Part shown: piece after piece, positions 7,431 to 60,789 of the stretch
Position numbering within the stretch: position 1 is the first letter of the stretch
Layout: each line of letters opens with the position of its first letter
Assembly: GCA_964464035.1 (NCBI GenBank)
Contig: CAYXEN010000006.1
Coordinates: 649-64,648, forward strand
Direction: 5' to 3'
Origin: an uncultured bacterium
GTDB taxonomy: Bacteria > Krumholzibacteriota > Krumholzibacteriia > WVZY01
Length of the DNA: 64,000 bases
Notes under the pieces: generated by a model
What the model was told of the DNA's origin: nothing
Databases searched by the model: none
Seen by the model: the letters and a program-made list of their open reading frames with translations, nothing else
Translations under genes and position numbers: made by a program

Positions 7431-7517
7431 CGCGGAGCGGGTTGAGCTCGATCGATCGAATGATCCCGTGAAAATGCCGCGGTGCGAACGCAAGGACCCG
7501 CGGCGAACGACATAGAG

Positions 7518-8705
7518 ATGGAACAAGACATCGAAAAGATCCTCGTGATAGATCCTTTCTCCGGTGCCGCCGGTGACATGCTTCTCGCTTCGCTCATCGA
7601 CGCGGGTCTCGACGTGGAGCGGTTGGCGGATGCCGTTCGAAGCGTCCCCGGGCTCTCGGGTGTCGGTATCGAGAGTCGCAGAGTCAAGAGGGGACTCTTC
7701 CAGGCGACGTACCTCGAGGTGAGCCTTCCCGAGGAGAGCGCCGAGCGCTCCCTGGCCGACATCGAGGACATGATCGCGAGGTCTTCTCTCCCCGCGGCGG
7801 TCAAGAAGGGATCCATCGATACCTTCAGACTCCTTGCCGAAGCGGAGGCCCGGGTTCACGGTTGCCCGGTGAGCGAGATCCATTTCCACGAAGTGGGCGG
7901 GCTCGACGCGATATTCGATATCGTGGGATGGCACTCCGCCCTAGCCGCGCTGGGCTCCCCGGCGTGCTATTACACGCGGATAGTGCTGGGAACCGGTAGC
8001 ACGAGCTGTCGGCACGGGGAGATCCCCCTGCCCGCGCCCGCCACGACCGAATTGCTGAAGGACCACGAAGTATCGTTCTCCCGCCGCGAAAGGGAACTTG
8101 TGACTCCCACGGCCGCCGCGATAATCGCCGGCTGTTTTCGTCCTCTTGGGACCGACGCATCATTGGTGCTGGAGAAAACGGGCTACGGGGCGGGAAGCCT
8201 GGACCCCGACGACGGCCCGCCGAACGTGTTGCGCACGATGCTGGGATCACGGAGGGTGATTCCCTCATATGTCTGCATCGCCAGATCGACGATCGACGAC
8301 ATGAACCCGGAGGTCTACGGGTTCCTGATGGAGAAACTGTTCTCGCTGGGAGCGCTCGAGGTGTACTACCATCCCGTCATGATGAAAAAGAACCGCCCGG
8401 GCACGGAGATAACGGTCCTGGCCGACGAAGATGTTCTCGATGCAGTCATAGGATGCATGCTGGAGCATACGACCACCCTGGGGCTGAGGATCAGCAGGGA
8501 ACAGCGCGTGGAACTGGCGCGGGAAGTGGAGGATGTGGAGACTCCCCTGGGAAAGGTCAAGGTCAAGATAGCGCATCTGCCCGGCGGCGGAGTCAAGATG
8601 AGTCCCGAGTACGAATCCTGCAGATCCCTGGCCGAGAAGACCGGGGCCAGGATCCTGGAGGTTTTCGAAGCCGCGCGCAGCGCTTGGGAAGGAAGGAAGA
8701 GATGA
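7518..8705 (+). CDS. larC: Nickel-pincer cofactor biosynthesis protein LarC (Ni insertase)
   Basis: DPFSGAAGDM, AEARVHG, HFHEVG, HGEIPLPAPAT, TPTAAAI, IDDMNPE, MKKNRPG, TTTLG, PEYESC. Confidence 0.92.
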   Translation: MEQDIEKILVIDPFSGAAGDMLLASLIDAGLDVERLADAVRSVPGLSGVGIESRRVKRGLFQATYLEVSLPEESAERSLADIEDMIARSSLPAAVKKGSIDTFRLLAEAEARVHGCPVSEIHFHEVGGLDAIFDIVGWHSALAALGSPACYYTRIVLGTGSTSCRHGEIPLPAPATTELLKDHEVSFSRRERELVTPTAAAIIAGCFRPLGTDASLVLEKTGYGAGSLDPDDGPPNVLRTMLGSRRVIPSYVCIARSTIDDMNPEVYGFLMEKLFSLGALEVYYHPVMMKKNRPGTEITVLADEDVLDAVIGCMLEHTTTLGLRISREQRVELAREVEDVETPLGKVKVKIAHLPGGGVKMSPEYESCRSLAEKTGARILEVFEAARSAWEGRKR

Positions 8706-13800: not shown

Positions 13801-14105
13801 CTTCCCTCCTTCATTCGTTAGGATGCCCGTCGTGCGGCTGCCGGAGTCGGGTTCTATGGGTTCGGCGGGGTACGTTTGCTTGCGGTCAGTATACACCAAG
13901 AGGTTGAAAGGCATAAACCGTAAATGCCCCGGTGGCGGGCAAGACGAATGTCGTTGAGATGAGAGGCGGGAAACTGCTAGAATTATACATGCATATCCGT
14001 CGAAACTCCATGACGGGAGACCAGGCCGGTTACGGCGCTTCTTTCTCGGCGGATCGGGGCTGATGAGAGCTCTTGCCGAAATAATCCAGCGAAACGGAGT
14101 GGCAC

Positions 14106-14408
14106 ATGACCGAAACCAGACTTCGAAGCCTGTTCAAAGCGATAAGCTGGCGGGTCTTCGCCACCACCTTGACCGGGACCCTCGTTTTCCTCTTCACCCA
14201 CAAGGTCGCCCTGGCGGTCAGCGTGGGATTACTCGACAGCCTCTTGAAGATCCTGGCCTATTTCCTTCACGAGAGGTTGTGGGCGACAGTGAGGTTCGGC
14301 AGAAAGGCACACCAGCTCGAGGACATCGAGATCAGCGGCAGGATCACGGAGGAGGACAAGGAGATAATAAAACAGAAGCTCAGGGAGCTTGGTTACATCG
14401 ACGATTGA
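14106..14408 (+). CDS. DUF2061-like small membrane protein
   Basis: ETRLRSLFKAISWR...YFLHERLW pattern; two transmembrane helices. Confidence 0.72.
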   Translation: MTETRLRSLFKAISWRVFATTLTGTLVFLFTHKVALAVSVGLLDSLLKILAYFLHERLWATVRFGRKAHQLEDIEISGRITEEDKEIIKQKLRELGYIDD

Positions 14409-17920: not shown

Positions 17921-20900
17921 TTGGGAGCGGATTTGAAGCTTTTCGACAAGGAAGAATTCGAGCTTGGCTACGGAAGCCGTTTCCAGCGTTTCCAGGACTT
18001 GATGCGCTACCGCGTCCGCGAGATACTCCTCGTCTCCAGCCTCTATGACTCCTTCATCCTTTCCGAGGACGGGCGCCTCTACGAGGAACTCCTCACGGAA
18101 TACATCGGATTGAATCTCACCCACATGCCGGGAATAACGCGGGTTTCGAGCGGGCATGACGCCATCGAAATGGTGAAGGACCTGAAGCGTTTCGATCTCA
18201 TCATCACTACGAGGCGTCTCGAAGACATGCACGCGGTGGCTTTCGCCGAAGGCTTGAGGCGGGAAAAGATAGACATCCCGCTGGTGCTGCTCACGTACGA
18301 CAACCGAGAACTCCAGGAGCTGATGGAGCATCACGACCTCTCGCGATTCGAGAGGGTGTTCATGTGGCAGGGGGACTTCCGGATACTTCTTTCCATAATC
18401 AAGTACATCGAGGACAAGATGAACGTCGACTACGACACCCATCTCGTCGGCGTGCAGTCGATCATCCTCATCGAGGACAATGTCCGCTTCTATTCTTCGT
18501 ACCTCCCCATGATCTATACCGAGGTGATGAAGCACACCCAGCGCCTCATATCGGAAGGCGTGAACCCGGCCCACAAGCTCCTTCGGCAGAGAGCGCGGCC
18601 GAAGATCCTCCTCAGTGACAATTACGAGGAAGCTTGGAATTACTTCCAGAGGTATCACGACAATGTCCTGGGCGTCATATCCGATATCCAGTTCCCCCGC
18701 GGGGGGGTATCGGATCCCGAAGCGGGCTTCGAGTTCGCCAAGAGCGTGAAAGCCATGCATCCGGACATACCCGTGCTCCTCCAGTCACGGGACATCAAGA
18801 ACAAGGAAAGGGCGGAGGCGACGGGAGCTTCTTTCCTGCTCAAGAATTCGCCGATGCTGCTGCACGAGTTGCAGCGGTTCATGAAGGAGAACTTCAGCTT
18901 CGGAGACTTCATCTTCAGGCTTCCGGACGGGACGGAAGTCGGCAGGGCCAAGGACCTCAAGAGCCTGGAGGAACAGCTTCACAGAGTTCCCGTGGAAAGC
19001 CTCATCTACCACGGTGAGCGGAACCATTTCTCGAACTGGCTCAAGGCGAGGACCGAGTTCTGGCTCGCCCACAAGCTAAGGCCGCGCAAGGTGAGCGACT
19101 ACGCCTCCGGGGAAGAATTGAGGAATGAACTCATAAACAGCCTGCACGATCTCCGCGTCGAACAACACCGGGGAATAGTGATGGACTACGACCCGAAGAC
19201 GATGGAAGAAGCCACCAGCGTCGTGCGTATCGGGGGTGGATCCCTGGGCGGCAAGGGAAGGGGAGTAGCTTTCTGCAGCACGTTGATAAACACTTACAGG
19301 ATCCAGAACGAATTCCCCGGGGTCAAGATATCGGTGCCCTCTTCCATAATATTGAGCACGGACGTGTTTCATCGCTTCCTCGACGAAAACAAGCTCCATG
19401 ATTTCGCGATAAGGACCGACGACGACGAGGAGATAACGCGCAGGTTCGTCGAGGCGGAATTGCCGCACGAGGTAGTGCGCTCCCTGAAGCGCTTCATCAA
19501 ATCGTTCCGCTTTCCTCTTTCCGTGCGTTCGTCCAGCCTTCTCGAGGACTCCCAGTTCATCCCATTCGCGGGCGTATACAAGACCTTCATGATCCCCAAC
19601 AATCACAAGGACTACAAGGTGAGGCTCGAGCAACTCCTGAGCGCCGTGAAGAGGGTCTATGCCTCGACTTTCTTCAAACACGCCAAGACCTATTTCAAAC
19701 CCACCCCGTATCGTCTCGAGGAGGAGATGATGGCGGTGATGGTTCAGAAGCTCGTCGGCGTGAGGCACGGTTCTCGATTCTATCCGGATTTTTCCGGGGT
19801 GGCGAGATCGCACAATTTCTACCCCATGCCGCCGATGAAGGCCGCCGACGGGATCGCGTCAGTCGCCCTCGGCCTGGGCAAGACGGTGGTGGAAGGCGGT
19901 CGGACCCTAAGGTTCTGCCCCAGGTATCCCAAGCACGTGCATCAGCTCTCCACGGTGGAGTTCGCGCTCGGATACTCGCAGATGGATTTCTGGGCGTTGG
20001 AACTTCCCCCCGAGGACGCCGCCTTCGATCCTTGCGAGGAATTCGAGCTGGCTAAATTCGGCCTGGACGTGGCCGAGAAAGACGGCGTGCTCGCCGCGCT
20101 GGGCTCGACATACAGCAGGGAGAATCACGCGATATACGACGGGATCTCCAGGAACGGCGTGAGAATAGTGAGCTTCGCACCGATCCTAAAGGGAGACCTC
20201 TTCCCTCTCGCAAGGATTCTGGAGCTGCTTCTCGCCCTGGGCCAGAAAGGAATGAATACGCCGGTGGAGATAGAATTCGCCGTGAACCTCACTGTTCCGC
20301 CCGGGGAACCCAAAGAGTTTCACCTATTGCAGATGCGCCCGATGGTGATCAACGACGAAGTGGAGAAGATCGAGATCGAAGAATCCTTGTCGGGCGAGAT
20401 AATATGCCGCAGCTCATGCGTCCTGGGCAACGGCGTGGTCGACGACATAAGGGACATAGTGATGGTTCATCCCGGGCGGTTCAAGCGCTCCGAGAGCCCC
20501 ATCGCCGCCAAGGAGGTGGGTTTCTTCAACCACAAGCTCGCCGGCGAGGGCAGACCGTACCTGCTCATCGGGGTGGGGAGATGGGGGTCGGCGGATCCCT
20601 GGCTCGGCATACCCGTGACCTGGGACGACATATGGGGAGCGCGCGTCATCGTCGAATGCGGCATGAAGGACCTCAAGGTGACGCCTTCCCAGGGGGCGCA
20701 TTTCTTCCAGAACATCACCGCGGCCAGAATCGGGTATTTCACCATCGATTCGGAAGACAAGGACAGTTACGTCAACTGGAGTTGGCTGGCTTCGCATGGA
20801 TTGGTCGAAGAGAAGAAGTTCACCTGCCATATCAGCCTCGAGGATCCCTTGGTCGTCGTGATGAACGGGCACGACGGCGAGGGCGTGATCTATCTACCGG

Positions 20901-20944
20901 CGGGCGGCAGGGCGTCGCGATTCAATCCGAGCCAGTCGTCGTGA
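17921..20944 (+). CDS. Receiver-domain and PEP/pyruvate-binding (PPDK_N, ATP-grasp) protein
   Basis: Two REC-like segments; GGSLGGKGRG, LSVRSSSLLEDSQ, FAGVYKT, MAVMVQ, PVEIEFA, LLQMRP. Confidence 0.8.
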   Translation: MGADLKLFDKEEFELGYGSRFQRFQDLMRYRVREILLVSSLYDSFILSEDGRLYEELLTEYIGLNLTHMPGITRVSSGHDAIEMVKDLKRFDLIITTRRLEDMHAVAFAEGLRREKIDIPLVLLTYDNRELQELMEHHDLSRFERVFMWQGDFRILLSIIKYIEDKMNVDYDTHLVGVQSIILIEDNVRFYSSYLPMIYTEVMKHTQRLISEGVNPAHKLLRQRARPKILLSDNYEEAWNYFQRYHDNVLGVISDIQFPRGGVSDPEAGFEFAKSVKAMHPDIPVLLQSRDIKNKERAEATGASFLLKNSPMLLHELQRFMKENFSFGDFIFRLPDGTEVGRAKDLKSLEEQLHRVPVESLIYHGERNHFSNWLKARTEFWLAHKLRPRKVSDYASGEELRNELINSLHDLRVEQHRGIVMDYDPKTMEEATSVVRIGGGSLGGKGRGVAFCSTLINTYRIQNEFPGVKISVPSSIILSTDVFHRFLDENKLHDFAIRTDDDEEITRRFVEAELPHEVVRSLKRFIKSFRFPLSVRSSSLLEDSQFIPFAGVYKTFMIPNNHKDYKVRLEQLLSAVKRVYASTFFKHAKTYFKPTPYRLEEEMMAVMVQKLVGVRHGSRFYPDFSGVARSHNFYPMPPMKAADGIASVALGLGKTVVEGGRTLRFCPRYPKHVHQLSTVEFALGYSQMDFWALELPPEDAAFDPCEEFELAKFGLDVAEKDGVLAALGSTYSRENHAIYDGISRNGVRIVSFAPILKGDLFPLARILELLLALGQKGMNTPVEIEFAVNLTVPPGEPKEFHLLQMRPMVINDEVEKIEIEESLSGEIICRSSCVLGNGVVDDIRDIVMVHPGRFKRSESPIAAKEVGFFNHKLAGEGRPYLLIGVGRWGSADPWLGIPVTWDDIWGARVIVECGMKDLKVTPSQGAHFFQNITAARIGYFTIDSEDKDSYVNWSWLASHGLVEEKKFTCHISLEDPLVVVMNGHDGEGVIYLPAGGRASRFNPSQSS

Positions 20945-48213: not shown

Positions 48214-49527
48214 ATGATCAGGATATGCATGATCGGGACCGGCTACGTCGGTCTGGTTTCCGGAGCCTGCCTGGCCGATTTCGGGAACAACGTTTATTGC
48301 GTCGACATAGACAAGAAAAGGATCGAAGCTCTCCAGTCATGCGAGATTCCGATCTACGAACCCGGCTTGAAACACATGGTGGAACACAACGCCCAGGCGG
48401 GGCGACTGCACTTCACCACCGATCTGGGGAGCGCGGTCGGGGATTCAGACGTGATCTTCATCGCGGTGGGCACGCCGGCGAACGACGACGGAAGCACGGA
48501 CCTCTCCCAGGTGTTCGGCGCTTCCGAGGAACTGGCCTCTTATATCGACGGCTACAAGGTAATCGTCCAGAAGAGCACGGTTCCGGTGGGCACGACCCGC
48601 AGGATCGCCGACCACATAAAGAGCAAGGCCGCGAGAGGGGCTTCGTTCGACATGGTGGCGAACCCGGAGTTCTTGCGCGAGGGCTCGGCCATCGAGGATT
48701 TCCTCAGGCCCAACCGCGTCGTGATCGGGGTCGAATCCTCTCGTGCGGAAGAGATCATGAAGAAAGTGTACCGGCCGCTCTATCTCATAGAGACGCCCAT
48801 AGTGACCACGAATCTCGAGACGGCCGAGTTGATAAAGTATGCGAGCAACGCCTTCCTCGCGACGAAGATATCGTTCATAAACGAGATGGCGGCGATATGC
48901 GATCTCGTCGGCGCCGACGTGGACGACGTCGCCAAAGGCATGGGGCTCGACGGGAGGATAGGGCCGAAGTTCCTGCACGCGGGATTGGGTTACGGCGGCT
49001 CCTGCCTGCCCAAGGACGTCTCCTCGCTGATTCACGTGGCGCGAGTCCACGGATACGAGCCCGTGATCATAAGGGCGGCTCACCAGGTCAACGCCGGGCT
49101 CGTGGAGAGGGCGTTTGCGAAGCTGGAGGCCGAGCTCGATCGGCTCGAGGGCAAGAGGATCGCGGTCTTGGGCTTGTCCTTCAAGCCCAACACGGACGAT
49201 CTCAGGGAAGCCCCCTCGATAAAAATCATAAGCCGTCTCATAAAAAGTGGAGCGACGGTCAAGGTGTTCGATCCGGTGGCCATGGACAATTTCAGGGAGA
49301 AAGCAGGCCTCGAGGTCGAATACTCCAAGAATCCTTACGACGCCGCCGAGGGGTGTCACGCCCTCATGCTGTTGACGGAATGGAACGAGTTCAGGGAACT
49401 CGACCTGTCGAGATTGAAGAAGCTCCTGGCCCAGCCTGTGTTCATCGACTGCAGGAACGTGTACAAGAAAGAGCTCATGCGGGAGCACGGGTTCCGTTAT
49501 CAGTCTTTCGGCCGTGGCATGAATTGA
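48214..49527 (+). CDS. ugd: UDP-glucose/GDP-mannose 6-dehydrogenase
   Basis: GTGYVGL, PIYEPGL, KSTVPVG, NPEFLREG, KYASN, GYGGSCLPKD, FKPNTDD. Confidence 0.93.
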   Translation: MIRICMIGTGYVGLVSGACLADFGNNVYCVDIDKKRIEALQSCEIPIYEPGLKHMVEHNAQAGRLHFTTDLGSAVGDSDVIFIAVGTPANDDGSTDLSQVFGASEELASYIDGYKVIVQKSTVPVGTTRRIADHIKSKAARGASFDMVANPEFLREGSAIEDFLRPNRVVIGVESSRAEEIMKKVYRPLYLIETPIVTTNLETAELIKYASNAFLATKISFINEMAAICDLVGADVDDVAKGMGLDGRIGPKFLHAGLGYGGSCLPKDVSSLIHVARVHGYEPVIIRAAHQVNAGLVERAFAKLEAELDRLEGKRIAVLGLSFKPNTDDLREAPSIKIISRLIKSGATVKVFDPVAMDNFREKAGLEVEYSKNPYDAAEGCHALMLLTEWNEFRELDLSRLKKLLAQPVFIDCRNVYKKELMREHGFRYQSFGRGMN

Positions 49528-49563
49528 ACGCCCGTGACCCCGGGAGCGCGCAGGGAGAAGCGG

Positions 49564-50601
49564 ATGGATTTCTATGAAAAAATATGCGTGACGGGAGGAG
49601 CCGGTTTCATCGGCTCCAATTTCGTTCATTACATATCGCGCAAGTATCCCCGATGCAGGATCACCGTTCTCGACGCTCTCACGTATGCCGGGAACCTCGA
49701 GAATCTCTCGGGCGTTCTCGATCGGCCTGAAGTCGAGTTCGTGAAAGGCTCGGTCTGCGACGCCGAACTGGTGGGGAAAACGCTCTCGGGATGCGAGGCG
49801 GTTTTCAACTTCGCCGCCGAGACCCACGTGGATCGCTCGATCCAGGAGGCGGGAAGCTTCATAGAGACGGACGTTCTCGGCACCTACAACCTGCTCCGCG
49901 CGGCGCTTGACGCGGGAGTCGAGCGGTTCATCCAGATATCCACCGACGAAGTCTACGGCAGCGCCGACGCCGGGTCTTTCACTGAAGAATCGCCCCTGCG
50001 GCCGGGCAACCCGTATTCGGCGAGCAAGTGCGGCGGGGATCTCATGTGCCTCGCCTTCCACAACACGTACCGGGCTCCCGTCGTCATCACCAGGAGCTCG
50101 AACAATTTCGGACCCTACCAGCACGTCGAGAAATTCATCCCCCTGTTCATAACGAACGCCGTGGAGGGCAAGGATCTTCCCCTCTACGGCGACGGCATGC
50201 ACGAACGCGACTGGATCCACGTCGAGGACAATTGCCGCGCGATCGAGACGGTCGCGTTGCAGGGAGAGGTCGGAACCGTCTACAACGTCGCGTCCGGGTC
50301 GACCAGGCCGAATCTCGAAGTGGCCCGCCTGATTCTTGGACGCGTAGGGGAAACGAAGTCCAAAATAGTCTTCATCGAGGATCGCAAAGGGCACGACAGG
50401 ATCTACTCGATCGATTCTTCGCGCATGAGGAAACTGGGCTGGAAACCGGAGCGCGACTTCGAAGAAGCGCTGCGCTCCACGGTGGATTGGTATCTGGCCA
50501 ACCGCGGGTGGTGGGAGCGGGTGCGGAGCGGCGCCTTCCGCGAGTATTACGAGACTCATTACCGCGACAAGCTCGAGAGAGGCAAGGCCTATGACGCATA
50601 G
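49564..50601 (+). CDS. rfbB: dTDP-glucose 4,6-dehydratase
   Basis: GGAGFIG, LTYAGN, AAETHVDRS, STDEVYG, YSASK, NNFGPYQ, RKGHD. Confidence 0.92.
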   Translation: MDFYEKICVTGGAGFIGSNFVHYISRKYPRCRITVLDALTYAGNLENLSGVLDRPEVEFVKGSVCDAELVGKTLSGCEAVFNFAAETHVDRSIQEAGSFIETDVLGTYNLLRAALDAGVERFIQISTDEVYGSADAGSFTEESPLRPGNPYSASKCGGDLMCLAFHNTYRAPVVITRSSNNFGPYQHVEKFIPLFITNAVEGKDLPLYGDGMHERDWIHVEDNCRAIETVALQGEVGTVYNVASGSTRPNLEVARLILGRVGETKSKIVFIEDRKGHDRIYSIDSSRMRKLGWKPERDFEEALRSTVDWYLANRGWWERVRSGAFREYYETHYRDKLERGKAYDA

Positions 50602-51694
50602 AATAATGGCCGTGGTAGGCGCAAGGCCCAACTTCATGAAGGTGGCGCCCATTTGGAGGGAGCTGGAGCGCAAAGGGGGCTTCACGGGGATCCTCGTTCA
50701 CACCGGGCAGCACTACGACGAGAACATGTCGAAGGTGTTCTTCGACCAGTTGAAACTCCCCAAGCCGGACATATATCTGGGAGTGGGCTCGGGCACGCAC
50801 GGTGCCCAGACGGGCCGGATAATGATCGAGTTCGAAAAAGCCCTCGCGAGGGAGGGAGCGGACCTCGTGCTCGTGGTCGGCGACGTCAACTCGACCATGG
50901 CGTGCAGCCTGGTGGCCGTCAAGATGTCCATACCCGTGGCCCACGTCGAAGCCGGCCTTCGCAGTTTCGACAGGTCGATGCCCGAAGAGATAAACCGCAT
51001 GGTCACGGACATCGTAGCCGACCTCCTCTTTACCACCTGCCGGGACGCGGAGAAGAACCTCCTTCGCGAAAACGTCGACCCCGCCAAGATTCATTTCGTG
51101 GGGAACGTCATGATCGACAGCCTCATGTACTACAGCTCCATGGCCGACAGCTCTCCCATTCTCGATGAACTCTCGCTCACCGGGGGCGAGTTCGGCCTCG
51201 TCACGCTGCATCGGCCCTCCAACGTCGATCACCCCGAAACGTTCGAGCGTATCGTCGAAGCCTTGCTCGCCATCGGCGAGAAGTGCCGGCTGGTTTTCCC
51301 CGTGCACCCGCGAACGAGGAAGATGATGGAAAGGGAAGGAATGAAGATTCCCGAATCGAGGATGAAGATGATCGATCCGGTGGGCTATCTCGATTTCCTC
51401 AAGTTGATGAAACACGCCCGTATCGTCTTGACCGATTCCGGGGGTATACAGGAGGAGACGACGGTTCTCGGCGTGCCGTGCATAACTATTCGGGAGAACA
51501 CGGAACGCCCGATCACGATCGAGGTGGGAACCAACGTGCTCGCGGGTACGGACAAGGAGAGGATCATGGCCGAGGGATTGAAGGCGCTTTCCGGTGATGC
51601 GGGCGATCACGCGGTGCCCGAACTCTGGGACGGCCGGGCGTCGGAGAGGATAGTCGGGGTTCTCGAAAATTATTTCAATGAAACAAAACGGTGA
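50591..51694 (+). CDS. wecB: UDP-N-acetylglucosamine 2-epimerase (non-hydrolysing)
   Basis: GARPNFMK, HTGQHYD, GDVNST, HVEAGLRS, MPEEINR, TLHRPSNVD, TDSGGIQEE. Confidence 0.94.
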   Translation: MTHRIMAVVGARPNFMKVAPIWRELERKGGFTGILVHTGQHYDENMSKVFFDQLKLPKPDIYLGVGSGTHGAQTGRIMIEFEKALAREGADLVLVVGDVNSTMACSLVAVKMSIPVAHVEAGLRSFDRSMPEEINRMVTDIVADLLFTTCRDAEKNLLRENVDPAKIHFVGNVMIDSLMYYSSMADSSPILDELSLTGGEFGLVTLHRPSNVDHPETFERIVEALLAIGEKCRLVFPVHPRTRKMMEREGMKIPESRMKMIDPVGYLDFLKLMKHARIVLTDSGGIQEETTVLGVPCITIRENTERPITIEVGTNVLAGTDKERIMAEGLKALSGDAGDHAVPELWDGRASERIVGVLENYFNETKR

Positions 51695-53247: not shown

Positions 53248-54285
53248 TTGGTTCTTACGCACTTGATCATTCCCTTTGTGACGTCATACTTCATCATTCT
53301 CGCGGTGGTGCCTCTCGTGCGCAGGTACGCCTTGAGATGGAAGCTGGGGGACAAGCCCAACGGCAGGAAGATCCACGCCAGCTCCATTCCTCATCTCGGG
53401 GGGATAGGGCTGACTTGCGGCGTGCTGGGGGGGCTGCTCGTTCACGAGATTCTGTATCCCGGTTCGCCGGTGGGCTTGGTGAAGATGTTTCCCGGCATGG
53501 GTGTGATCGTTCTCCTGGGCCTGGTGGACGACATCAAGAATCTCAGGGCATTGCAGAAACTCTCCGTCCAACTCATAGCGGCTCTCGTCCTCGTGCTGTC
53601 GGGCTACCAGCTCCTCGTCGGGGTGGGGGCGGTAGACGGCGTCCCCGTGCTCGCGGCTCTCGTTACGATGTTCTTCATCGTCGGCGTCTCGAATTCGATG
53701 AACCTCATAGACGGCCACGACGGCCTGGCGGCCGGGATCTGTCTCATCGCGGCGTCGGCTTTCTTCCTCATGGCCGCGGGCGAGGGCCAGGGCGCGGTCA
53801 TGGTGACTGCAGTGGTCCTGGCCGGCGCGTGCCTCGCCTTTCTCATCTTCAATTTCCCTCCGGCGAAGATATTCATGGGAGACACGGGCAGCATGTTCCT
53901 GGGCATCTCCCTGGCTGTAGCCGCCTGCATGTTGACGTCGAAGGAAGCTTCCCTGTCGAGGCTGGCCGGAATCGGTCTCGTGCTCGGCCTCCCGCTCATG
54001 GACACCACGCTGGCCGTTACGAGGAGAGTGCTGAGGCGGGTCCCGATTTTCCAGGCTGATTGCCTGCACATTCATCATGTTCTCTCTTCATCCGGTTTCT
54101 CCGATCGCGCCGCCTTGTTCATTCTATACGGCTTGCAGTTCGTTCTGGCCGTTTCCGGCGTGCTCGCAGCGAGGGGATATTCATTGTTCCTCGCCGTGGG
54201 CCTGGTCGTCCTGGGTGTTTCCTTCTCGATCTTCTTGAGACTCATGCTCGCCTCCGCCGAGTCCGCGAAAGTCATCCCCCATTGA
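53248..54285 (+). CDS. MraY/WecA-family undecaprenyl-phosphate GlcNAc-1-phosphate transferase
   Basis: DKPNGRKIH, PHLGG, GLVDD, NSMNLIDGHDGLA, FNFPPAKIFMGDTG, HIHH. Confidence 0.92.
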   Translation: MVLTHLIIPFVTSYFIILAVVPLVRRYALRWKLGDKPNGRKIHASSIPHLGGIGLTCGVLGGLLVHEILYPGSPVGLVKMFPGMGVIVLLGLVDDIKNLRALQKLSVQLIAALVLVLSGYQLLVGVGAVDGVPVLAALVTMFFIVGVSNSMNLIDGHDGLAAGICLIAASAFFLMAAGEGQGAVMVTAVVLAGACLAFLIFNFPPAKIFMGDTGSMFLGISLAVAACMLTSKEASLSRLAGIGLVLGLPLMDTTLAVTRRVLRRVPIFQADCLHIHHVLSSSGFSDRAALFILYGLQFVLAVSGVLAARGYSLFLAVGLVVLGVSFSIFLRLMLASAESAKVIPH

Positions 54286-54311
54286 CGTTGACGGATTCAG
54301 TGTGATAGATT
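54282..54311 (+). promoter_or_regulatory. Putative sigma70 promoter for the hemC-like gene
   Basis: TTGACG-N18-TAGATT with a TGn extended -10. Confidence 0.45.
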
Positions 54312-54374
54312 CTACGAACTAAATCTCCATTTCGAGACGACTCCTTTTTGAACTTCATTCGACGGAGATAACCC

Positions 54375-55298
54375 TTGACTACGAAAATCAAATGTCGCTT
54401 CAGAAGTGATTCCGATCATCTCTCCCGCATCCAGCTCGAAGAAGTCGTGAACTTGCTTGCGAAGCGCAGTCCCAAGACGGCCGTCGAAGTCTGCCGGCCC
54501 GAAGATGAAAACAAACAGGCCGGCGCCAGGACGAGCCCCAATTCGCCCGCCAGGATCGCAACATTGATGAGCAACCTGGAAGCGGGCAAGTTCGATGCGC
54601 TGGTCCTGCACGCTTCCTATCTTCCCGTGAAACTGCCCGCCGGAGTGGAACTCGCGGCGGTGACTTCCCGCCTCACCCCGTACGACGTCATAATCTCCCG
54701 CAACGAAGAGATCTTCGACGACCTCCCCCAGAACTCCAGTGTCATAGCCAACGAGATCAGGCGGGAAGCCCAACTGCTCTACTACAGGCCGGATCTCAAG
54801 ATGGTGAGGATGAAAGGCAGTGTGGACGCCTTGATTCAGAAGGTGAGAGACGGCAAGGTGGACGCGGTCATCCTGGCCGCGGCCGATGTCGAAAGGTTGA
54901 ACCGCCAGGACTACGTGACGGAAGTCTTCACGAACTCCATATGCGTGCCCGCGGCGGGGCAGGGGTGCCTCGCGGTCCTGGTCCGCTCGGGAGACGAGGC
55001 GCTCAAGAAAATGATGGCGGCCGTGAACGACCCGGCGTCGCTGAGCGAGATCACGGCCGAGAGGGCGTTTCTCAATTCACTTTCCCTGGGCGAATCCGAT
55101 CCGGTCGGCGTTCTGGGCAGTATCGAGGGCAAGAGGATCGAGCTGGAGGGCGTGTTGGCCCTCCCCGACGGCCGGGAGAAGATACGCTCCACCGTCAACG
55201 GCAGCCAGGGAAGGGAGGAGGAGTTGGGCGAGATGTTGGCGGAAGAGATTCTCGATGCGGGCGGCCGGGAGATTCTCCAGGAGTTGAACATCATTTGA
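54375..55298 (+). CDS. Hydroxymethylbilane synthase (HemC)-like protein, predicted catalytically inactive
   Basis: HemC scaffold (RREAQLLYYRPDL, DAVILAAA, VPAAGQG, AERAFL, LPDG) but VHSxKD replaced by VLHASY and GGC replaced by LGE. Confidence 0.85.
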   Translation: MTTKIKCRFRSDSDHLSRIQLEEVVNLLAKRSPKTAVEVCRPEDENKQAGARTSPNSPARIATLMSNLEAGKFDALVLHASYLPVKLPAGVELAAVTSRLTPYDVIISRNEEIFDDLPQNSSVIANEIRREAQLLYYRPDLKMVRMKGSVDALIQKVRDGKVDAVILAAADVERLNRQDYVTEVFTNSICVPAAGQGCLAVLVRSGDEALKKMMAAVNDPASLSEITAERAFLNSLSLGESDPVGVLGSIEGKRIELEGVLALPDGREKIRSTVNGSQGREEELGEMLAEEILDAGGREILQELNII

Positions 55299-55323: not shown

Positions 55324-56592
55324 ATGCTGGACAAGAGATTGATCAGAGAAGAGCCCGACAGGGTGAGGACGGCGATCGAGTCACGCGGCATGGACCTCGA
55401 TCTCGACCGCGTCATAGCTCTCGACAGGGAGCTCCTCGCGAGCATGCAGGAGAGCGAGAAGCTCAAGCACGAACGCAACGTCAAGAGCGAGGAGATCGCG
55501 AAGAAGAAGAGAGAGGGAGGGGACGCCGCCGAACTTCTCGAGCGCATGAAGGAAGTCTCCGCGCAGATCAAGGAACGCGAGGCCAGGGAGAAGGAGATGA
55601 GGGAGGAACTTGCCGCCTTGATGCTCACCATTCCCAATATCCCCCACGAAAGCGTCCCCGTCGGAGGCGGCTCGGATGACAACGTCGTGATACGCGAAGT
55701 GGGCGACGTTCCGGAGCCTTTCTTCGACGTCAAGCCTCACTGGGAGATCGGGGAGGAGCTCGGACTCATAGATTTCGAGGGCGGACGCAAAGTGGCCGGC
55801 AGGGGATTCATCGTTTTCAAGGGCGACGGCGCGCTCTTGTGCCGGGCCCTGGTGAATCTCATGCTCGACATGCACGTGACCCAGGGATACGTGGAGACCC
55901 TGGTGCCGTATCTCGCCAACCGCGAGGCGATGACCGGCACCGGGCAGCTTCCCAAGATGGAAGAGGACATGTATCACTGCGAGGTGGACGATCTCTTTCT
56001 CATTCCCACGAGCGAGGTGCCGCTCACGAATCTCTCGAGGGAATCCACGCTCGACCCCGACGAGCTCCCGCTCAAGTTCACCGCTTTCAGCCCCTGCTTC
56101 AGGAGGGAAGCGGGGAGCTACGGAGCCGATACGAGGGGGCTTCTTCGCGTGCATCAGTTCGACAAGGTGGAGCTCGTCAAGATCGCCCACCCCGACAACT
56201 CCTACGATGAACTGGAATCACTCGTGAAGGACGCCTGCGAGGTGATCGAAGCTCTGGAGTTGCCTTACCGGATCGTCGCCCTTTGCACCGGCGACCTCAG
56301 TTTCTCCGCCGCGAAATGCTACGACCTCGAAGTCTACGCTCCGGCGGTGGGGAAGTGGCTCGAGGTGTCCTCATGCAGCAATTTCGAAGCGTTCCAAGCG
56401 CGTCGCGCCGGCATCAAACTCAAGAAGAGCCCCGGATCGAAGCATCGTTTTGCGCACACGTTGAACGGCTCGGGCCTGGCGCTGCCGAGGATAGTGGCCG
56501 CCATCTTCGAATTTCACCAGACTCCGACGGGCAGGATCAAGATCCCGGCCAAATTGGTGCCGTACATGAACGGCAAGGAACATCTCGGTTGA
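55324..56592 (+). CDS. serS: Seryl-tRNA synthetase
   Basis: MLD, IPNIPH, GTGQLPK, LIPTSEV, CFRREAGSYG, RVHQFDKVE, YDLE, EVSSCSN, TLNGSGLA. Confidence 0.97.
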   Translation: MLDKRLIREEPDRVRTAIESRGMDLDLDRVIALDRELLASMQESEKLKHERNVKSEEIAKKKREGGDAAELLERMKEVSAQIKEREAREKEMREELAALMLTIPNIPHESVPVGGGSDDNVVIREVGDVPEPFFDVKPHWEIGEELGLIDFEGGRKVAGRGFIVFKGDGALLCRALVNLMLDMHVTQGYVETLVPYLANREAMTGTGQLPKMEEDMYHCEVDDLFLIPTSEVPLTNLSRESTLDPDELPLKFTAFSPCFRREAGSYGADTRGLLRVHQFDKVELVKIAHPDNSYDELESLVKDACEVIEALELPYRIVALCTGDLSFSAAKCYDLEVYAPAVGKWLEVSSCSNFEAFQARRAGIKLKKSPGSKHRFAHTLNGSGLALPRIVAAIFEFHQTPTGRIKIPAKLVPYMNGKEHLG

Positions 56593-56611: not shown

Positions 56612-57862
56612 ATGACGTCTTTCTCTGTCTACAAGGGCAATATCAGGTTCTGGCTCAAGGGCTACCTGTTTCTCGGCGTCGTCGTGCTGACCACCATCGC
56701 CCTTCTCTACTCCAACCGGGTCATAGAGCGCATGCAGAAGCAATCCGAAGCGACCACGCGATTGTTCTCGCGTTTCATCGCCGAGATGCTTCTCCAGGTG
56801 GACCAATCGGGCAAGCGGGCCGTCATCCAGGAGGTTCTTGGCGAGATCGATCTGCCGATCATTTTCACGGATTCGGCGGGAAGGCCGATAGCCTGGCACC
56901 ACGTGGGCGTCGCCGAGCCGAGCGACGAGGATTTCGAGCAATTGCTGAGGATCGACCCGGAGGCGCCTCCCCCCGGGAAAATAGCGCGGCTCGTGAAACT
57001 GACGCGCAAGTTCGATTCCAGGAACGATCCCATACCCGTCAAGGTCGTCGGTTCCGATGCCGTGCAGGGTTACGTGCACTTCGGTTCCTCCAGACTTCAA
57101 GGCGAGCTTAGGTTGATGCCGTTGTTGCTCGTCGCCGTTTTCCTGATCTTCATGGCCGCGGGCTTCCAGGGTTTCCGCTACTTGAAGCTGAGCGAGGAAC
57201 GATCCATCTGGGTCGGGATGGCCAAGGAGACGGCCCACCAGCTCGGAACGCCCCTTTCGGCGCTGCTCGGATGGATCGAGATCATCAAGGAAAAGTGCGG
57301 GGCCGGAGACGTGGACAGGATCGCGGGCACGGTCGCGGAGATGGAAGAAGACCTGGCGAGGCTGGGCAAGATAACGGAGCGTTTCAGCAAGATAGGTTCG
57401 CGCCCCGAGCTCGAGCCCATAGCTCTGAAGCCCATTCTCGAGAGAACGGTCGGTTATTTTCACAAACGCCTGCCCAGCCTCAAGGCCGATTCCACCATCC
57501 GGCTCGAGGTGGCGGACGATCTCCGGGTCATGGGGAACGCCGAGCTGCTCGAGTGGGTTTTCGAGAACCTCGTAAAGAACAGCATAGACGCCATCGGCCG
57601 GGAAGGTGGACTGATAGAGATAAGCTCACGCGCCGGGGCGCGCAGGGCGGACGTTCTCGTGCACGACACCGGCAAGGGAATCCCGCCGAAGCACCGCCAG
57701 AGGATATTCTCCCCGGGGTTCACGACGAAGAAGAGGGGATGGGGGCTGGGTCTGGCGTTGACGCGCCGGATCGTCGAGGAGTACCACGGCGGCGAACTGC
57801 GGCTCGTGGAATCACAAGAGGGCGGTGGGACCACTTTCCTGGTGAGATTGCCCTTGGCCTGA
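56612..57862 (+). CDS. Membrane-bound sensor histidine kinase
   Basis: Two transmembrane helices; ETAHQLGTP H-box, NLVKNSIDA, DTGKGI, GFTTK, GWGLGL. Confidence 0.92.
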   Translation: MTSFSVYKGNIRFWLKGYLFLGVVVLTTIALLYSNRVIERMQKQSEATTRLFSRFIAEMLLQVDQSGKRAVIQEVLGEIDLPIIFTDSAGRPIAWHHVGVAEPSDEDFEQLLRIDPEAPPPGKIARLVKLTRKFDSRNDPIPVKVVGSDAVQGYVHFGSSRLQGELRLMPLLLVAVFLIFMAAGFQGFRYLKLSEERSIWVGMAKETAHQLGTPLSALLGWIEIIKEKCGAGDVDRIAGTVAEMEEDLARLGKITERFSKIGSRPELEPIALKPILERTVGYFHKRLPSLKADSTIRLEVADDLRVMGNAELLEWVFENLVKNSIDAIGREGGLIEISSRAGARRADVLVHDTGKGIPPKHRQRIFSPGFTTKKRGWGLGLALTRRIVEEYHGGELRLVESQEGGGTTFLVRLPLA

Positions 57863-58075: not shown

Positions 58076-59623
58076 ATGCAGCCAAGGATTCTTTGGGTCG
58101 ACGACGAAATAGAACTCCTCAAGTCCCATGTCATCTTCCTGGCCGGCAAGGGATACGACGTGAAGACCGCCTCCAACGGCGAAGACGCCCTTGCCATGGT
58201 CAAGAAGGAAAGATTCGATCTGATTCTCCTCGATGAATCCATGCCGGGAAAGAGCGGCCTCGAAACGCTCGACGAACTCAACGCCATAGAGCCGATGCTT
58301 CCCGTAATAATGATAACGAAGAACGAAGAAGAGAGCCTGATGGAAGACGCCATCGGCAAGAAGATAAGCGACTACCTGCTCAAGCCCGTCAATCCCCTTC
58401 AGATATACTCGGCCTGCAAGCGCCTGCTAGAATCGGACAAGATCCGCGAGCGCAAGTTTTCCGAGGATTATATAAGGGAATTCAATTCATTCGACGACCT
58501 CGTGCACGATGGCACCTGGGAAAGCTGGCTCAAGCTCCACCGCAGGTTCTCGGAGTGGGACCTCGAATTCGATCGCTTCCGCGAAACGGGGCTCGAGACC
58601 ATGCACGACGAACAGAAGAGCACGGCCAACTATCATTTCGGGCGCTTCCTCGAGAAGCAGTACCCCGAGTGGATAAACTCCCGGGAACGGCCTCGCATGA
58701 GCGTGGATGTTTTCGAGCAGTACGTGTTCCCCCACATGAAGTCGCAAGGAAGCGTCTTTTTCATCGTCATCGATTGCGTGCGCCTCGACCAGTGGATGAT
58801 CATAGAAGAACTTCTCAAGGATGAATTCGAGATCGAGAAGAATTACTACCTGTCCATTCTTCCCACGGCCACTCCTTATTCGCGCAACGCGATCTTCAGC
58901 GGGCTCTTTCCGGACGAGATCAGCAGGAAGTATCCCGAGAAGTGGCTGGAAAGAAGCAAGGACGAGATGAGCAAGAACCGATACGAAGAATTCTTCCTCG
59001 CCGAGCAGATCAAGCGGCTCGGGGGGGATGCATCGAGAACCAAGTACTTCAAGGTCTACACGGTCCAGGAGTCCAACGAGCTTCGCAAGAAGGTACCCGC
59101 GCTCGCGTCGCTGCCTTTCGCCGCTTTCGTTTTCAACTTCGTGGACATCCTCGCCCACGGGAGGAACCAATCCGAGATCCTGCAGGAGATAGCGCCCGAC
59201 GAATCGGCGTTCAGGTCCCTCATGCGCTCCTGGTTCAGCCACTCCACGTTGCTCGCCCTTTTGAGGGAGATCGCAAAGAAGAACGCCAGGGTGATAATGA
59301 CCACCGATCACGGCTCGATAATCGGACGCAAATCGTGCCTGGTCCACGGCAGGAGGGATACGTCGACGAATCTCCGCTACAAGTTCGGCGACAACCTCAA
59401 TTGCGACGCCAAGCAGGCCATAATCACGAGGAATCCGGCGGATTTCCGCCTTCCCTCGGAATCGAAGACCAAGACTTACGTTTTCGCCAAGGAATATTAT
59501 TACTTCGTCTACCCGACCAATTTCCGGGACTACGAAAGACAATACCTGGGGAGTTTCCAGCACGGCGGCGCGTCGCTCGAAGAGATGATCCTCCCCTGCC
59601 TCAGCCTGACCCCCAAGACCTGA
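58076..59623 (+). CDS. porX: PorX-family response regulator (REC plus PglZ/alkaline-phosphatase domain)
   Basis: ILWVDDE, LLDESMPG, ITK, KPVNP; IDCVRLDQW, LPTATPYSRN, FVDILAH, TDHG, QHGG. Confidence 0.85.
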   Translation: MQPRILWVDDEIELLKSHVIFLAGKGYDVKTASNGEDALAMVKKERFDLILLDESMPGKSGLETLDELNAIEPMLPVIMITKNEEESLMEDAIGKKISDYLLKPVNPLQIYSACKRLLESDKIRERKFSEDYIREFNSFDDLVHDGTWESWLKLHRRFSEWDLEFDRFRETGLETMHDEQKSTANYHFGRFLEKQYPEWINSRERPRMSVDVFEQYVFPHMKSQGSVFFIVIDCVRLDQWMIIEELLKDEFEIEKNYYLSILPTATPYSRNAIFSGLFPDEISRKYPEKWLERSKDEMSKNRYEEFFLAEQIKRLGGDASRTKYFKVYTVQESNELRKKVPALASLPFAAFVFNFVDILAHGRNQSEILQEIAPDESAFRSLMRSWFSHSTLLALLREIAKKNARVIMTTDHGSIIGRKSCLVHGRRDTSTNLRYKFGDNLNCDAKQAIITRNPADFRLPSESKTKTYVFAKEYYYFVYPTNFRDYERQYLGSFQHGGASLEEMILPCLSLTPKT

Positions 59624-59626
59624 GCC

Positions 59627-60064
59627 ATGGCTTCCTGGAAGGAAAAGCATTACCGGAGTTCGTCCGAGGAAGAAACTTTCTTCCTGGGCAAGGTGCTCGG
59701 CGAGTCCATTTCGCAGGGAAGATGCATATCCCTGGTCGGGCCGCTGGGGGCGGGCAAGACGGTGCTCGCCCGCGGGATCTGCCGCGGCCTCGGCGTGGAG
59801 GAAGAGATCCTGAGTCCGACTTTCGTTCTCTGCGAGGAATTCGCGGGCAAGCTCCCGGTCCTCCACGTCGACCTGTATCGCCTCGAGCACGAGCGAGAGC
59901 TGGAAGCTCTGGGCATATTCGACAGGATAGGCACCGAGTGCGTCGTCATCGTCGAATGGGGCGACCGGTCGGATCGGCTGACGAGCGCGGCGGACATGAT
60001 CGTCGAGCTTCGCATGGGGGGAGAAAGCGGCCGGGACCTCACAGTGAGAGAGAGAATCGAATGA
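59627..60064 (+). CDS. tsaE: tRNA t6A biosynthesis ATPase TsaE
   Basis: GPLGAGKT, SPTF, HVDLYRL, IVEWG. Confidence 0.93.
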   Translation: MASWKEKHYRSSSEEETFFLGKVLGESISQGRCISLVGPLGAGKTVLARGICRGLGVEEEILSPTFVLCEEFAGKLPVLHVDLYRLEHERELEALGIFDRIGTECVVIVEWGDRSDRLTSAADMIVELRMGGESGRDLTVRERIE

Positions 60065-60789
60065 ACGTACTGGCGTTGGATACGTCGCATCGAACGGGAA
60101 GTATCTCGCTTCGCAAGGCGGACGGATCGGTGCTGACCGGGAAGTTCGGCCCCGCCGAGATGCACCTGAAAGAGATAGGGCGGGTGACGCAGGAGATCCT
60201 CGCCGAAGCATCGATGTCGCTTCGCGGGATCGACCTGCTCGCGCTCGTGAAGGGACCGGGCAGCTTCACCGGGCTGAGGATCGGGATGGCCTTCGCCAAG
60301 GGGATTCATGCATCGCTGGGAGTGAGGATCGTGACCATGGATACACTCGAACTTCTGGCGACGCCGCTCTCGGCGCCGGGTGTGGTGGTTGCGCCCATGA
60401 TCGATGCCAAGAGGAACGAGGTATACGCGGCCGCCTTCATCGCTTCCGAGGATGATGGTTCCGGGATGAGGCGTGTGGTGGAGCCGCTGGCCGTGGAGCC
60501 GGGGAAGTTCCTGGACGTCCTCGAGCGCTCGCTTCCCGCGGGAACGCGAAAGACGGTGTTCGTCGGCTCAGGCGCAGCGAAGTACGGGGAGATGCTCGCG
60601 GCCCTGCCGGGCGATCGTTTCGAAACGGCTCCGGAGATCAGTCACGAACCGTCCACCGAGGCGCTTGCCTCCTCCGCCCCGGCTCTCGAGCCGTTGCCGG
60701 ACGAGGAGATCCCCGCCTTGGAGCCTTTCTACATACGCGCGAGCGACGCGGAGCTCAAGAGACTAAGAGAGGTGAGGGCGGATGGCTGA
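60061..60789 (+). CDS. tsaB: tRNA t6A biosynthesis protein TsaB
   Basis: LALDTS, GPGSFTGLRIG, IDAKRNEVY, LEPFYIR; ATGA overlap with tsaE. Confidence 0.92.
   Translation: MNVLALDTSHRTGSISLRKADGSVLTGKFGPAEMHLKEIGRVTQEILAEASMSLRGIDLLALVKGPGSFTGLRIGMAFAKGIHASLGVRIVTMDTLELLATPLSAPGVVVAPMIDAKRNEVYAAAFIASEDDGSGMRRVVEPLAVEPGKFLDVLERSLPAGTRKTVFVGSGAAKYGEMLAALPGDRFETAPEISHEPSTEALASSAPALEPLPDEEIPALEPFYIRASDAELKRLREVRADG

Follow-up and report, generated by a model that had tools for sequence, protein, structure and literature searches.

A stretch of 64,000 nucleotides from an uncultured Krumholzibacteriota bacterium (positions 649 to 64,648 of contig CAYXEN010000006.1, assembly GCA_964464035.1; the whole stretch is called the window below) contains a homologue of hemC, the gene of hydroxymethylbilane synthase (HMBS or HemC, EC 2.5.1.61), whose product lacks both the catalytic aspartate and the cysteine that carries the cofactor. 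HMBS, a textbook enzyme, makes its own covalent cofactor, which is unique. We consider it highly probable that the window gene is an exapted, catalytically dead orthologue of hemC that has been kept under selection; we call its product a pseudoenzyme because the fold is kept, the catalytic residues are lost, and the gene is under purifying selection like that on the adjacent serS. The core of the original prediction, made from the DNA letters and according to which the protein is intact, is unable to act as an HMBS and is kept for another purpose, is thus supported, and none of the tests run that could have spoken against it did so. We infer that a new function exists; that the protein acts as a binding or regulatory module is speculative.

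The features of the gene are listed below. Clade A designates the group of degenerate HemC homologues to which the window protein belongs, clade B a second and more divergent degenerate group.

54375–55298, + strand: HemC-like open reading frame (ORF), 307 amino acids, TTG start, uninterrupted; three-domain HMBS fold without the cofactor Cys and the catalytic Asp
54408–54416, + strand: D12-S13-D14 in place of the R11-x-S13 substrate/cofactor-binding motif
54492–54554, + strand: residues 40–60, a new sequence in place of the active-site lid, without the T-x-G-D and GGKGLF motifs
54618–54620, + strand: Tyr82 codon (TAT) at the position of E. coli Asp84, from the alignment
54759–54764, + strand: R129-R130, equivalent to E. 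coli R131/R132; present in 96% of clade A, V/K in clade B
55092–55094, + strand: Glu240 codon (GAA) at the position of the cofactor cysteine Cys242, from the alignment

Homology to HemC and predicted fold

The window protein has the full-length domain architecture of HMBS, with matches to the Pfam families Porphobil_deam (PF01379, E 4e-36, residues 15–211) and Porphobil_deamC (PF03900, E 1e-11, residues 225–293), and it scores 177.7 bits with the hemC model TIGR00212, for which the cut-off is 164 bits. The TIGR00212 score is 159.7–159.9 bits for other clade A proteins and 91–104 bits for clade B, below the cut-off in both cases, while a canonical HemC from a syntenic locus (P0364, in the locus L010 described below) reaches 354.9 bits. 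In a phmmer search of the PDB, residues 73–304 are colinear with residues 75–306 of E. coli HMBS (1pda/1ah5, E 4e-35), in agreement with the colinear alignment claimed earlier; over this range the residue number in the window protein is that of E. coli minus 2. The identity to E. coli HMBS (1PDA/1AH5) is 29–30% over the full length.

The AlphaFold2 model built from 77 family sequences has a mean predicted local distance difference test score (pLDDT) of 91.4 and a predicted template modelling score (pTM) of 0.89, and only residues 44–51 are below 50. The 32 best Foldseek matches of the model in the PDB are all HMBS, with template modelling (TM) scores of 0.84–0.90 (0.90 for 1ah5), and they include the structures of the D82A/E/N mutants of HMBS (5ov4-6); solute-binding proteins come after the HMBS entries, with TM scores below 0.42. 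A clade B orthologue modelled from 44 sequences also adopts the HMBS fold (pLDDT 93, TM 0.80–0.85 at 18–23% identity). The window protein therefore has the same three-domain fold as HMBS, colinear over the full length. It is a member of the HMBS superfamily by fold and descent, but it should not be annotated as an HMBS, since the defining catalytic features are missing.

Loss of the active site

The alignment comprises 77 clade A, 54 clade B and four other degenerate sequences, together with 104 canonical representatives. VLHASY (residues 77–82) pairs with VHSMKD, which puts Tyr82 at the position of Asp84, so that the pair formed by the catalytic Asp84 and the neighbouring Lys83 is Ser81-Tyr82 in the window protein; AERAFLNSLSLGESDP pairs with AERAMNTRLEGGCQVP, which puts Glu240 at the position of Cys242; and KGSVDAL pairs with RGNVGTR (R149>K, N151>S, R155>L). 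A different loop, modelled with a pLDDT below 50 at residues 44–51, stands in place of the GGKGLF lid. All these changes had been noticed in the original prediction, and the alignment to E. coli HMBS bears them out. It reveals further losses that had not been listed: R11 is replaced by D12, S13 by D14, F62 by R60, H80 by Leu, S81 by His, K83 by Ser, T127 by Ala and S129 by Glu. The two new aspartates, D12 and D14, do not vary within clade A, and 89% of clade B shares D14; clade A also has a new motif, P55-N56-S57-P58...R60, with little or no variation.

Among the 104 canonical representatives, eighteen active-site columns show a conservation of 94% or more (R11, S13, Q19, D46, F62, H80, S81, K83, D84, T127, S129, R131, R132, R149, N151, R155, R176 and C242). 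Every one of them is changed in at least one degenerate clade, and the only survivors in the window protein are Q19, R131, R132 and R176, the last as R174. Of the set that binds the carboxylates of the substrate (R11/S13/T127/S129/R131/R132/R149/R155/R176), the equivalents of R131, R132 and R176 are the sole ones left, and this holds for clade A alone; in clade B and in two further orthologues described below (P0131 and P0126), R131 is replaced by V, N, L or H, R132 by K or V, and R176 by A, S, H or W. Columns classed as structural are retained: R101, D106, Q135, R140, D142, P194, G197-Q198-G199, R206, E231, G268 and G298.

It had been pointed out earlier that the substrate-binding RR pair, the Arg of the KRL equivalent and the Arg of the AER motif are kept. 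This is so in the window protein but it is not a trait of the family: clade B mostly has V, K or A, and residue 230 (55062–55064), which is the AER Arg in the window protein (E. coli R232), is Trp in 91% of clade A.

A search of 5.8 billion proteins returned 438 matches, the best 120 of which, 52–67% identical to the window protein, are the relatives considered here. We looked for relatives that keep the Asp or the Cys and found neither. Asp is present at the D84 column in 0 of the 120 relatives and in 104 of the 104 canonical representatives; for Cys at the C242 column the counts are 0/120 and 103/104. The D84 column holds Y in 51 relatives, H in 20, S in 14, N in 8 and other residues in the remainder, and the C242 column holds E in 69, D in 17, G in 14 and others. 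Such a pattern is far outside what chance or sequencing error could produce.

Asp84 is needed for every step of the HMBS reaction. In a protein that has this residue, R11, R149 and R155 missing, the deamination and condensation chemistry of HMBS is not expected to run, and since Cys242 is missing, no dipyrromethane primer could be attached.

We find it scarcely credible that the protein is nevertheless still an HMBS, or a related pyrrole polymerase, that works with non-canonical residues, for example with the cofactor held non-covalently or attached to C7 or C190. Its TIGR00212 score is indeed above the cut-off, it retains the entire fold together with the GQG loop and R129/R130, and C190 is found in about 96% of the proteins of clades A and B. 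However, the D84 column is variable, with no conserved substitute for the required Asp; R11, R149, R155, K83, S13, T127, S129 and F62 are lost; hemB, whose product supplies the substrate, is gone from the locus; and the other clade A proteins, like those of clade B, score under the cut-off. Canonical proteins are variable at the position of C190, which is therefore not special. C190 was also rejected as an alternative cofactor site on the basis of human HMBS, which has a Cys at the aligned position.

Relatives and age of the loss

The relatives are 304–307 residues long in 103 of 120 cases, and their ORFs are intact. The organism names attached to them are those of metagenome-assembled genomes (MAGs) labelled Latescibacteria/Latescibacterota or Krumholzibacteria/Krumholzibacteriota, apart from one that is called just "bacterium". 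When a profile of the family is compared to 1.84 billion cluster representatives, the family forms a single 50% cluster at 508 bits and everything else scores about 250 bits or less; these lower-scoring matches consist of about 20 other degenerate HemC-like clusters, the remainder being fully canonical, and the best-scoring canonical group is that of P0125 and its relatives, at 245 bits. Clade B (about 55 clusters) came from a second search, with divergent degenerate sequences, and it is likewise set apart by a gap in bit score, from 330 bits down to 190 bits for canonical HemC. Together with the residue counts, this indicates that the loss of Asp and Cys is a family-wide and old event rather than a local decay.

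A scan of contigs with the single window protein as the query gave one locus. A scan of metagenome contigs with the clade A alignment, keyed on the universal PAAGQG motif, gave 80 loci, nine of which are family members; the other 71 score better with canonical HemC than with the window protein and look like ordinary HemC loci, most of them with CobA/HemD downstream and some also with HemB. A neighbour-joining tree of HemC-like proteins groups all the degenerate forms, but we did not rely on it, since long-branch attraction is likely.

Two more HemC homologues without the cofactor Cys were found in other genomic contexts. In L013 (GCA_003574095.1, 1417–2310), the degenerate homologue P0206 lies directly upstream of a Fur-family gene; it keeps R11, S13, Q19 and K83, has D84>Y (like the window protein) and C242>L, and scores 243.5 bits with TIGR00212. 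In L012 (GCA_029782595.1, 8431–9594), the 387-residue degenerate homologue P0139 lies between the genes of CorA and IleRS; it keeps K83, D84 and R131/R132, has Gly at C242, and scores 294.2 bits. Unlike the window family, both have kept far more of the canonical residues and have much higher TIGR00212 scores; since these are well above the cut-off, both proteins would be annotated as HMBS. P0206 and P0139 look like independent, younger events, and it seems that the cofactor Cys has been lost several times in HemC.

Purifying selection

The ratio of non-synonymous to synonymous divergence (dN/dS) was obtained from three pairs of clade A genomes whose synonymous divergence is not saturated.

L020–L021: HemC-like dN/dS 0.10 (dS 0.69); SerS dN/dS 0.135
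L020–L022: HemC-like dN/dS 0.126 (dS 0.88); SerS dN/dS 0.168
L021–L022: HemC-like dN/dS 0.133 (dS 0.74); SerS dN/dS 0.115

A value close to 1, which had been named in advance as a sign against the original prediction, was looked for, and values of 0.10–0.13 were found instead, as for serS in the same pairs. In more distant pairs, where dS is saturated, dN/dS is 0.3 or less. Forty columns are invariant across the 77 clade A sequences, and the divergence of the HemC-like protein tracks that of functional neighbours (the glycosyltransferase GT4, RimI and the flippase, see below) within and between clades. The HemC-like gene is thus under purifying selection as strong as that on serS.

These data largely refute the idea that the gene is a decaying remnant without function, whose reading frame would still be open just on account of its recent origin or of signals in its DNA (a promoter, translational coupling) that serS requires. 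We regard it as very improbable. That the remaining genes of the ancestral operon are gone, that the start codons are weak and not ATG in 8 of 10 loci, that the gap to serS is short (5–43 nt), and that the old catalytic columns are highly variable would all fit such a decay. However, the dN/dS of the gene equals that of serS, the ORFs of the 120 relatives are intact and almost fixed in length, the gene is kept in at least four deeply diverged lineages (33–39% identity) whose HMBS-fold models are confident, and a role at the level of DNA alone would leave the amino acids unconstrained.

Gene order and history of the locus

The HemC-like gene is flanked in the window by the following genes.

53248–54285, + strand: Glycos_transf_4 (WecA/MraY-type) gene, called GT4; upstream neighbour
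55324–56592, + strand: serS, 25 nt downstream of the HemC-like ORF
56612–57862, + strand: histidine kinase gene, part of the conserved downstream context
58076–59623, + strand: PorX-like response regulator gene with a PglZ domain (58076 is the likely start)

In clade A (the window, L001–L005 and L015–L023), the order is RmlB-like – UDP-GlcNAc 2-epimerase – flippase – GT4 – HemC-like – SerS – histidine kinase – response regulator/PglZ (PorX-like) – TsaE – TsaB – RimI – PNP – AccD – FolC – ROK. The proteins of clade B (L006–L008), of L009 (P0131) and of L011 (P0126) are only 33–39% identical to the window protein, and they occupy the identical slot between GT4 and SerS, which is why we consider them as orthologues of the window gene. 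The faster-evolving neighbours are similarly diverged across these lineages, with 33–38% identity for GT4, 36–40% for RimI and 40% for the flippase; SerS is 53–58% identical. GT4 is immediately upstream in all degenerate lineages, and it is not at that position in the lineages with a canonical hemC.

Two long contigs, L010 (GCA_964531335.1, 235 kb) and L014 (JGI 3300017991, 125 kb), carry canonical hemC loci of the P0125 group, with the order RmlB-like – SirC – canonical HemC – CobA/HemD – HemB – HemL – SerS – kinase – response regulator/PglZ – TsaE. Since the SerS proteins of L010 and of the degenerate loci are 50–60% identical, and the PorX-like proteins 52–62%, these loci come from related organisms and represent the same chromosomal site. 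No tblastn match to SirC, CobA/HemD, HemB or HemL was found in the window, L001–L009 or L011, and none of the four was found in L015–L023 either; no other hem gene appeared in a Pfam survey of 30 further proteins of the 64-kb window, which confirms the earlier remark that the window has none. Given that the same site holds an intact operon in L010 and L014, and that the partners are gone here, the window gene is a remnant of hemC after the loss of its operon: it is orthologous to a genuine hemC, has stayed at the original site, and has lost its four partner genes from this locus.

The linkage to serS, which it had been proposed to check, is kept in every locus with enough flanking sequence, and the position of the HemC-like gene at the head of a serS–kinase–porX-like–tsaE run, noted in the original prediction, is conserved. 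What does not hold is the reading of this arrangement as the sign of a SerS-related function: in L010 and L014, sirC-hemC-cobA/hemD-hemB-hemL precedes serS, so that the adjacency is a by-product of the deletion. A functional link to serS, the kinase and PorX by association was rejected for the same reason, since in L010 and L014 the kinase and the PorX-like genes follow an intact hem operon as well.

A neighbour-joining tree of the concatenated SerS and PorX-like sequences (932 columns, unrooted) separates L010, L014 and L011 from clade A, clade B and L009, with 100% bootstrap.

Some details of individual loci are worth recording. The intact operon of L010 (9314–14798) and L014 (9353–15184) encodes a SirC-like precorrin-2 dehydrogenase/ferrochelatase and a CobA/HemD fusion, whereas hemA, hemE and the genes for later haem steps are absent from it; the synthesis of sirohaem (or B12), rather than that of protohaem, may have been the role of the ancestral cluster. 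In L002 (CP070677.1, a closed genome of 4.3 Mb), the PorX-like gene (13687–14171) is cut to a receiver domain of 162 residues without PglZ, and TsaE, TsaB and RimI are missing at the locus, where a major facilitator superfamily (MFS) transporter and a protein with a type IX secretion system (T9SS) tail are found instead. A second closed genome, CP070727.1, carries a clade B orthologue. In L007 (10918–13435), serS is called with 307 residues and the next kinase with 498, and the tblastn match to SerS runs to 11985; the break is probably a frameshift or an assembly error in contig ERZ25039527:contig_38790.

Where the constraint lies in the protein

The mean entropy of 21 cleft columns was compared with that of the other columns in each group.

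Canonical HemC: 0.15 bits in the cleft, 2.15 bits elsewhere
Clade A: 0.81 bits in the cleft, 1.16 bits elsewhere
Clade B: 1.71 bits in the cleft, 1.58 bits elsewhere

In clade A the observed value for the cleft is reached in about 4% of permutations, and the former catalytic columns K83, D84, S129, R155 and C242 are among the most variable (1.7–2.7 bits); R8, D12, D14 and R60 are invariant in the cleft, and R129, R130, S149 and R174 are nearly so. Clade A may thus use a remodelled pocket. No extra constraint on the cleft, relative to the remaining columns, is seen in clade B. Eleven residues are conserved in all degenerate clades and not in canonical HemC (D14, D115, Y137, E173, Q178, V181, S188, C190, L247, E251 and E258); according to the published domain boundaries of the E. 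coli enzyme, they map to domain 2 (including the return strand to domain 1) and to the sheet of domain 3. This pattern of constraint favours a protein-contact surface rather than the old active site.

The original prediction had suggested that the inactive protein may bind porphobilinogen (PBG) or a tetrapyrrole. The part that concerns an intact and inactive protein stands, and the part that concerns the ligand is weakened, because the RR pair, R176 and the AER Arg are not family-wide. As the RR is lost in clade B and the catalytic columns are variable in clade A, binding of PBG or of a tetrapyrrole in the old site seems unlikely as the conserved role.

The same evidence bears on the hypothesis that the protein is a paralogue with a regulatory or partner role in an organism still capable of tetrapyrrole synthesis, in which the canonical hem genes are elsewhere and the dead copy modulates the pathway or senses PBG, hydroxymethylbilane, porphyrins or haem. 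In clade A, the retention of R129/R130, R174, S149 and G148, and a cleft that is somewhat more conserved than the rest, are compatible with such a role, and the searches for hem genes covered loci, so that relocated copies are possible. On the other hand, the gene order places the gene at the orthologous hemC position and not as an extra copy, the basic residues are not kept in the orthologues of clade B, L009 and L011, and a ligand with many carboxylates would be repelled by the new invariant acids D12 and D14 and by E/D at positions 127 and 240. Among the best 120 of 7,777 matches around P0125, the nearest canonical sequences, none is from a known host contig, which is weak evidence in the same direction. 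We therefore consider this paralogue hypothesis to be improbable, albeit less so than decay or residual HMBS activity.

Start codon and expression signals

The upstream region of the gene contains two signals.

54282–54311, + strand: sigma-70-like promoter match (TTGACG-18-TAGATT) in the 89 bp between GT4 and the ORF; a consensus match only
54364–54368, + strand: Shine-Dalgarno-like GGAGA, 6 nt before the TTG start; read off the sequence

The full-length, uninterrupted ORF of 307 codons and its own Shine-Dalgarno sequence and putative promoter were all part of the original prediction, and all are found, with the qualification that one sigma-70-like match is found ahead of the gene where 0.3 would be expected by chance. 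The gene caller of the source assembly gives a version of 223 codons (P0001), which misses the TTG start and the first 84 residues. The long form is real, since about 100 homologues align across all 307 residues, with R8, D12, D14, L16 and S17 invariant in the N-terminal part.

The start codon is TTG or GTG in eight of ten orthologous loci and ATG in the other two, so that its expression is probably low. With 5–43 nt between the gene and serS in the orthologous loci, the two are probably co-transcribed. The gap between GT4 and the HemC-like gene is 42–149 bp in all loci except the soil contig L022, in which it is about 600 bp (2337–2950). No riboswitch or T-box was detected ahead of the HemC-like gene or of serS when the whole window was searched with Rfam at gathering scores. 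The N-terminus, MTTKIKCRFRSDSD, has no hydrophobic segment, and residues 5–10 form strand 1 of domain 1 in the AlphaFold2 model; from this the protein is predicted to be cytoplasmic.

Other genes of the window

A gene of the AIR (aminoimidazole ribonucleotide)-carboxylase-like, LarB type is followed by a Ni_insertion gene of the LarC type (E 8e-119) at 6669–8705 (+ strand), a pair that suggests the synthesis of the nickel-pincer cofactor of lactate racemase-type enzymes. The gene at 17921–20944 (+ strand) encodes a 1007-residue fusion of an N-terminal receiver-like domain and a PPDK_N domain (phosphoenolpyruvate-utilising, ATP-binding), and that at 11101–13914 (− strand) a 937-residue fusion of PD40 repeats, an S9 peptidase domain and a C-terminal FGE-sulfatase-like domain.

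Three long ORFs look like shadow ORFs in this DNA of 59% GC: 48445–50685 (− strand, 746 residues), 58487–60211 (− strand, 574 residues) and the first 370 or so codons of 58942–60789 (+ strand, 615 residues). They seem to be antisense to real genes or to result from the over-extension of an N-terminus. The GC content at third codon positions is 0.70–0.83 in real genes (0.74–0.83 in the syntenic genes) and 0.54–0.58 in the two antisense ORFs. The likeliest starts are 60061 for TsaB and 58076 for the PorX-like protein.

Proposed history and its weak points

According to the mechanism that we favour, a genuine hemC would at first have been part of a sirC-hemC-cobA/hemD-hemB-hemL operon just upstream of serS. 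The four other tetrapyrrole genes would then have disappeared from the locus in the Latescibacterota/Krumholzibacteriota-like lineage of the window, and the remaining hemC would have lost the cofactor Cys, the catalytic Asp, most of the carboxylate-binding Arg, Ser and Thr residues and the lid loop, while keeping the complete three-domain clamp and the structural residues between the domains. The outcome would be a cytoplasmic, non-catalytic pseudoenzyme without cofactor that acts by binding and not by polymerising porphobilinogen.

A more detailed and tentative version is that, after an entire lineage at the level of a candidate phylum lost tetrapyrrole synthesis, the HemC scaffold was exapted as a protein- or ligand-binding factor that would use the newly constrained surface of domains 2 and 3 and, in clade A, the remodelled acidic/basic cleft, and that would work with the co-transcribed serS/PorY-PorX-like module or in the handling of scavenged haem; we think of it as possible rather than probable. 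If true, this would give the HMBS superfamily its first functional non-catalytic member.

Several points weigh against the proposal of an exapted orthologue. The absence of HMBS activity is predicted from the residues, and the idea of a contact surface comes from positions in the sequence combined with published domain boundaries. Clades A and B differ strongly in the cleft, and their functions might therefore not be the same. As to the new function, the gene neighbourhood is hardly informative, the adjacency being historical. The absence of hem genes concerns the window and the tested loci; a canonical hemC, or relocated copies of hemB, hemL or hemD, may be present elsewhere in the genomes. 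Last, the degenerate L011 groups with the canonical lineages in the tree of SerS and PorX-like proteins: a single loss needs the root to be on the branch of L010 and L014, otherwise two parallel losses took place. The former position of the root is favoured, on the basis of the junction between GT4 and the HemC-like gene, which is common to all degenerate lineages.

Annotation of the family is mixed because it straddles the TIGR00212 cut-off: JGI and some NCBI records read "hydroxymethylbilane synthase" or "HemC", and others "hypothetical". Metabolic reconstructions of Latescibacterota and Krumholzibacteriota MAGs will therefore wrongly score hemC as present. From this one locus, these bacteria may be tetrapyrrole auxotrophs; literature searches returned nothing relevant on haem or cobalamin auxotrophy in Latescibacterota/Krumholzibacteriota. 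The locus is also a clean natural example of the birth of a pseudoenzyme, as the ancestral operon and the derived, lone and dead hemC are found at the same site in related lineages, and identifying what the HemC-like protein binds would reveal a new use of the HMBS fold.

Comparison with known systems

Pseudoenzymes are well known as a class, and in our full-text literature searches neither a bacterial HemC without catalytic activity nor a conserved HMBS family devoid of the cofactor was found to be described; no paper turned up for the assembly and accession numbers either. With respect to HMBS itself, the window protein differs in that it has no Cys242, and hence no covalent dipyrromethane cofactor, no Asp84 and a replaced lid, in that its gene has no hemD, hemB or hemL as neighbours, and in that selection is no longer centred on the cleft.

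The domains 1 and 2 of the window protein form the same two-lobe clamp as the type II periplasmic-binding-protein fold, which is found in amino-acid solute-binding proteins, in the C-terminal domain of YhfZ and in the effector domains of LysR regulators, and there are weak Pfam matches to YhfZ_C and SBP_bac_3 (E 0.004–0.009, below the cut-off). However, the TM scores with this fold are just 0.30–0.46 and the window protein has an additional domain 3; in contrast to solute-binding proteins, it has no N-terminal signal, and no ATP-binding cassette (ABC) or tripartite ATP-independent periplasmic (TRAP) transporter genes are adjacent.

In concept, there is a likeness to pseudoenzymes that serve as regulatory subunits, such as HisZ, a catalytically dead paralogue of HisRS that regulates HisG: the window family is also composed of enzyme homologues in which the catalytic residues are lost, the fold is intact and selection is purifying. 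The difference is that HisZ is a paralogue that exists beside the active enzyme and has a known partner, whereas the window protein replaces the orthologue after the loss of the pathway.

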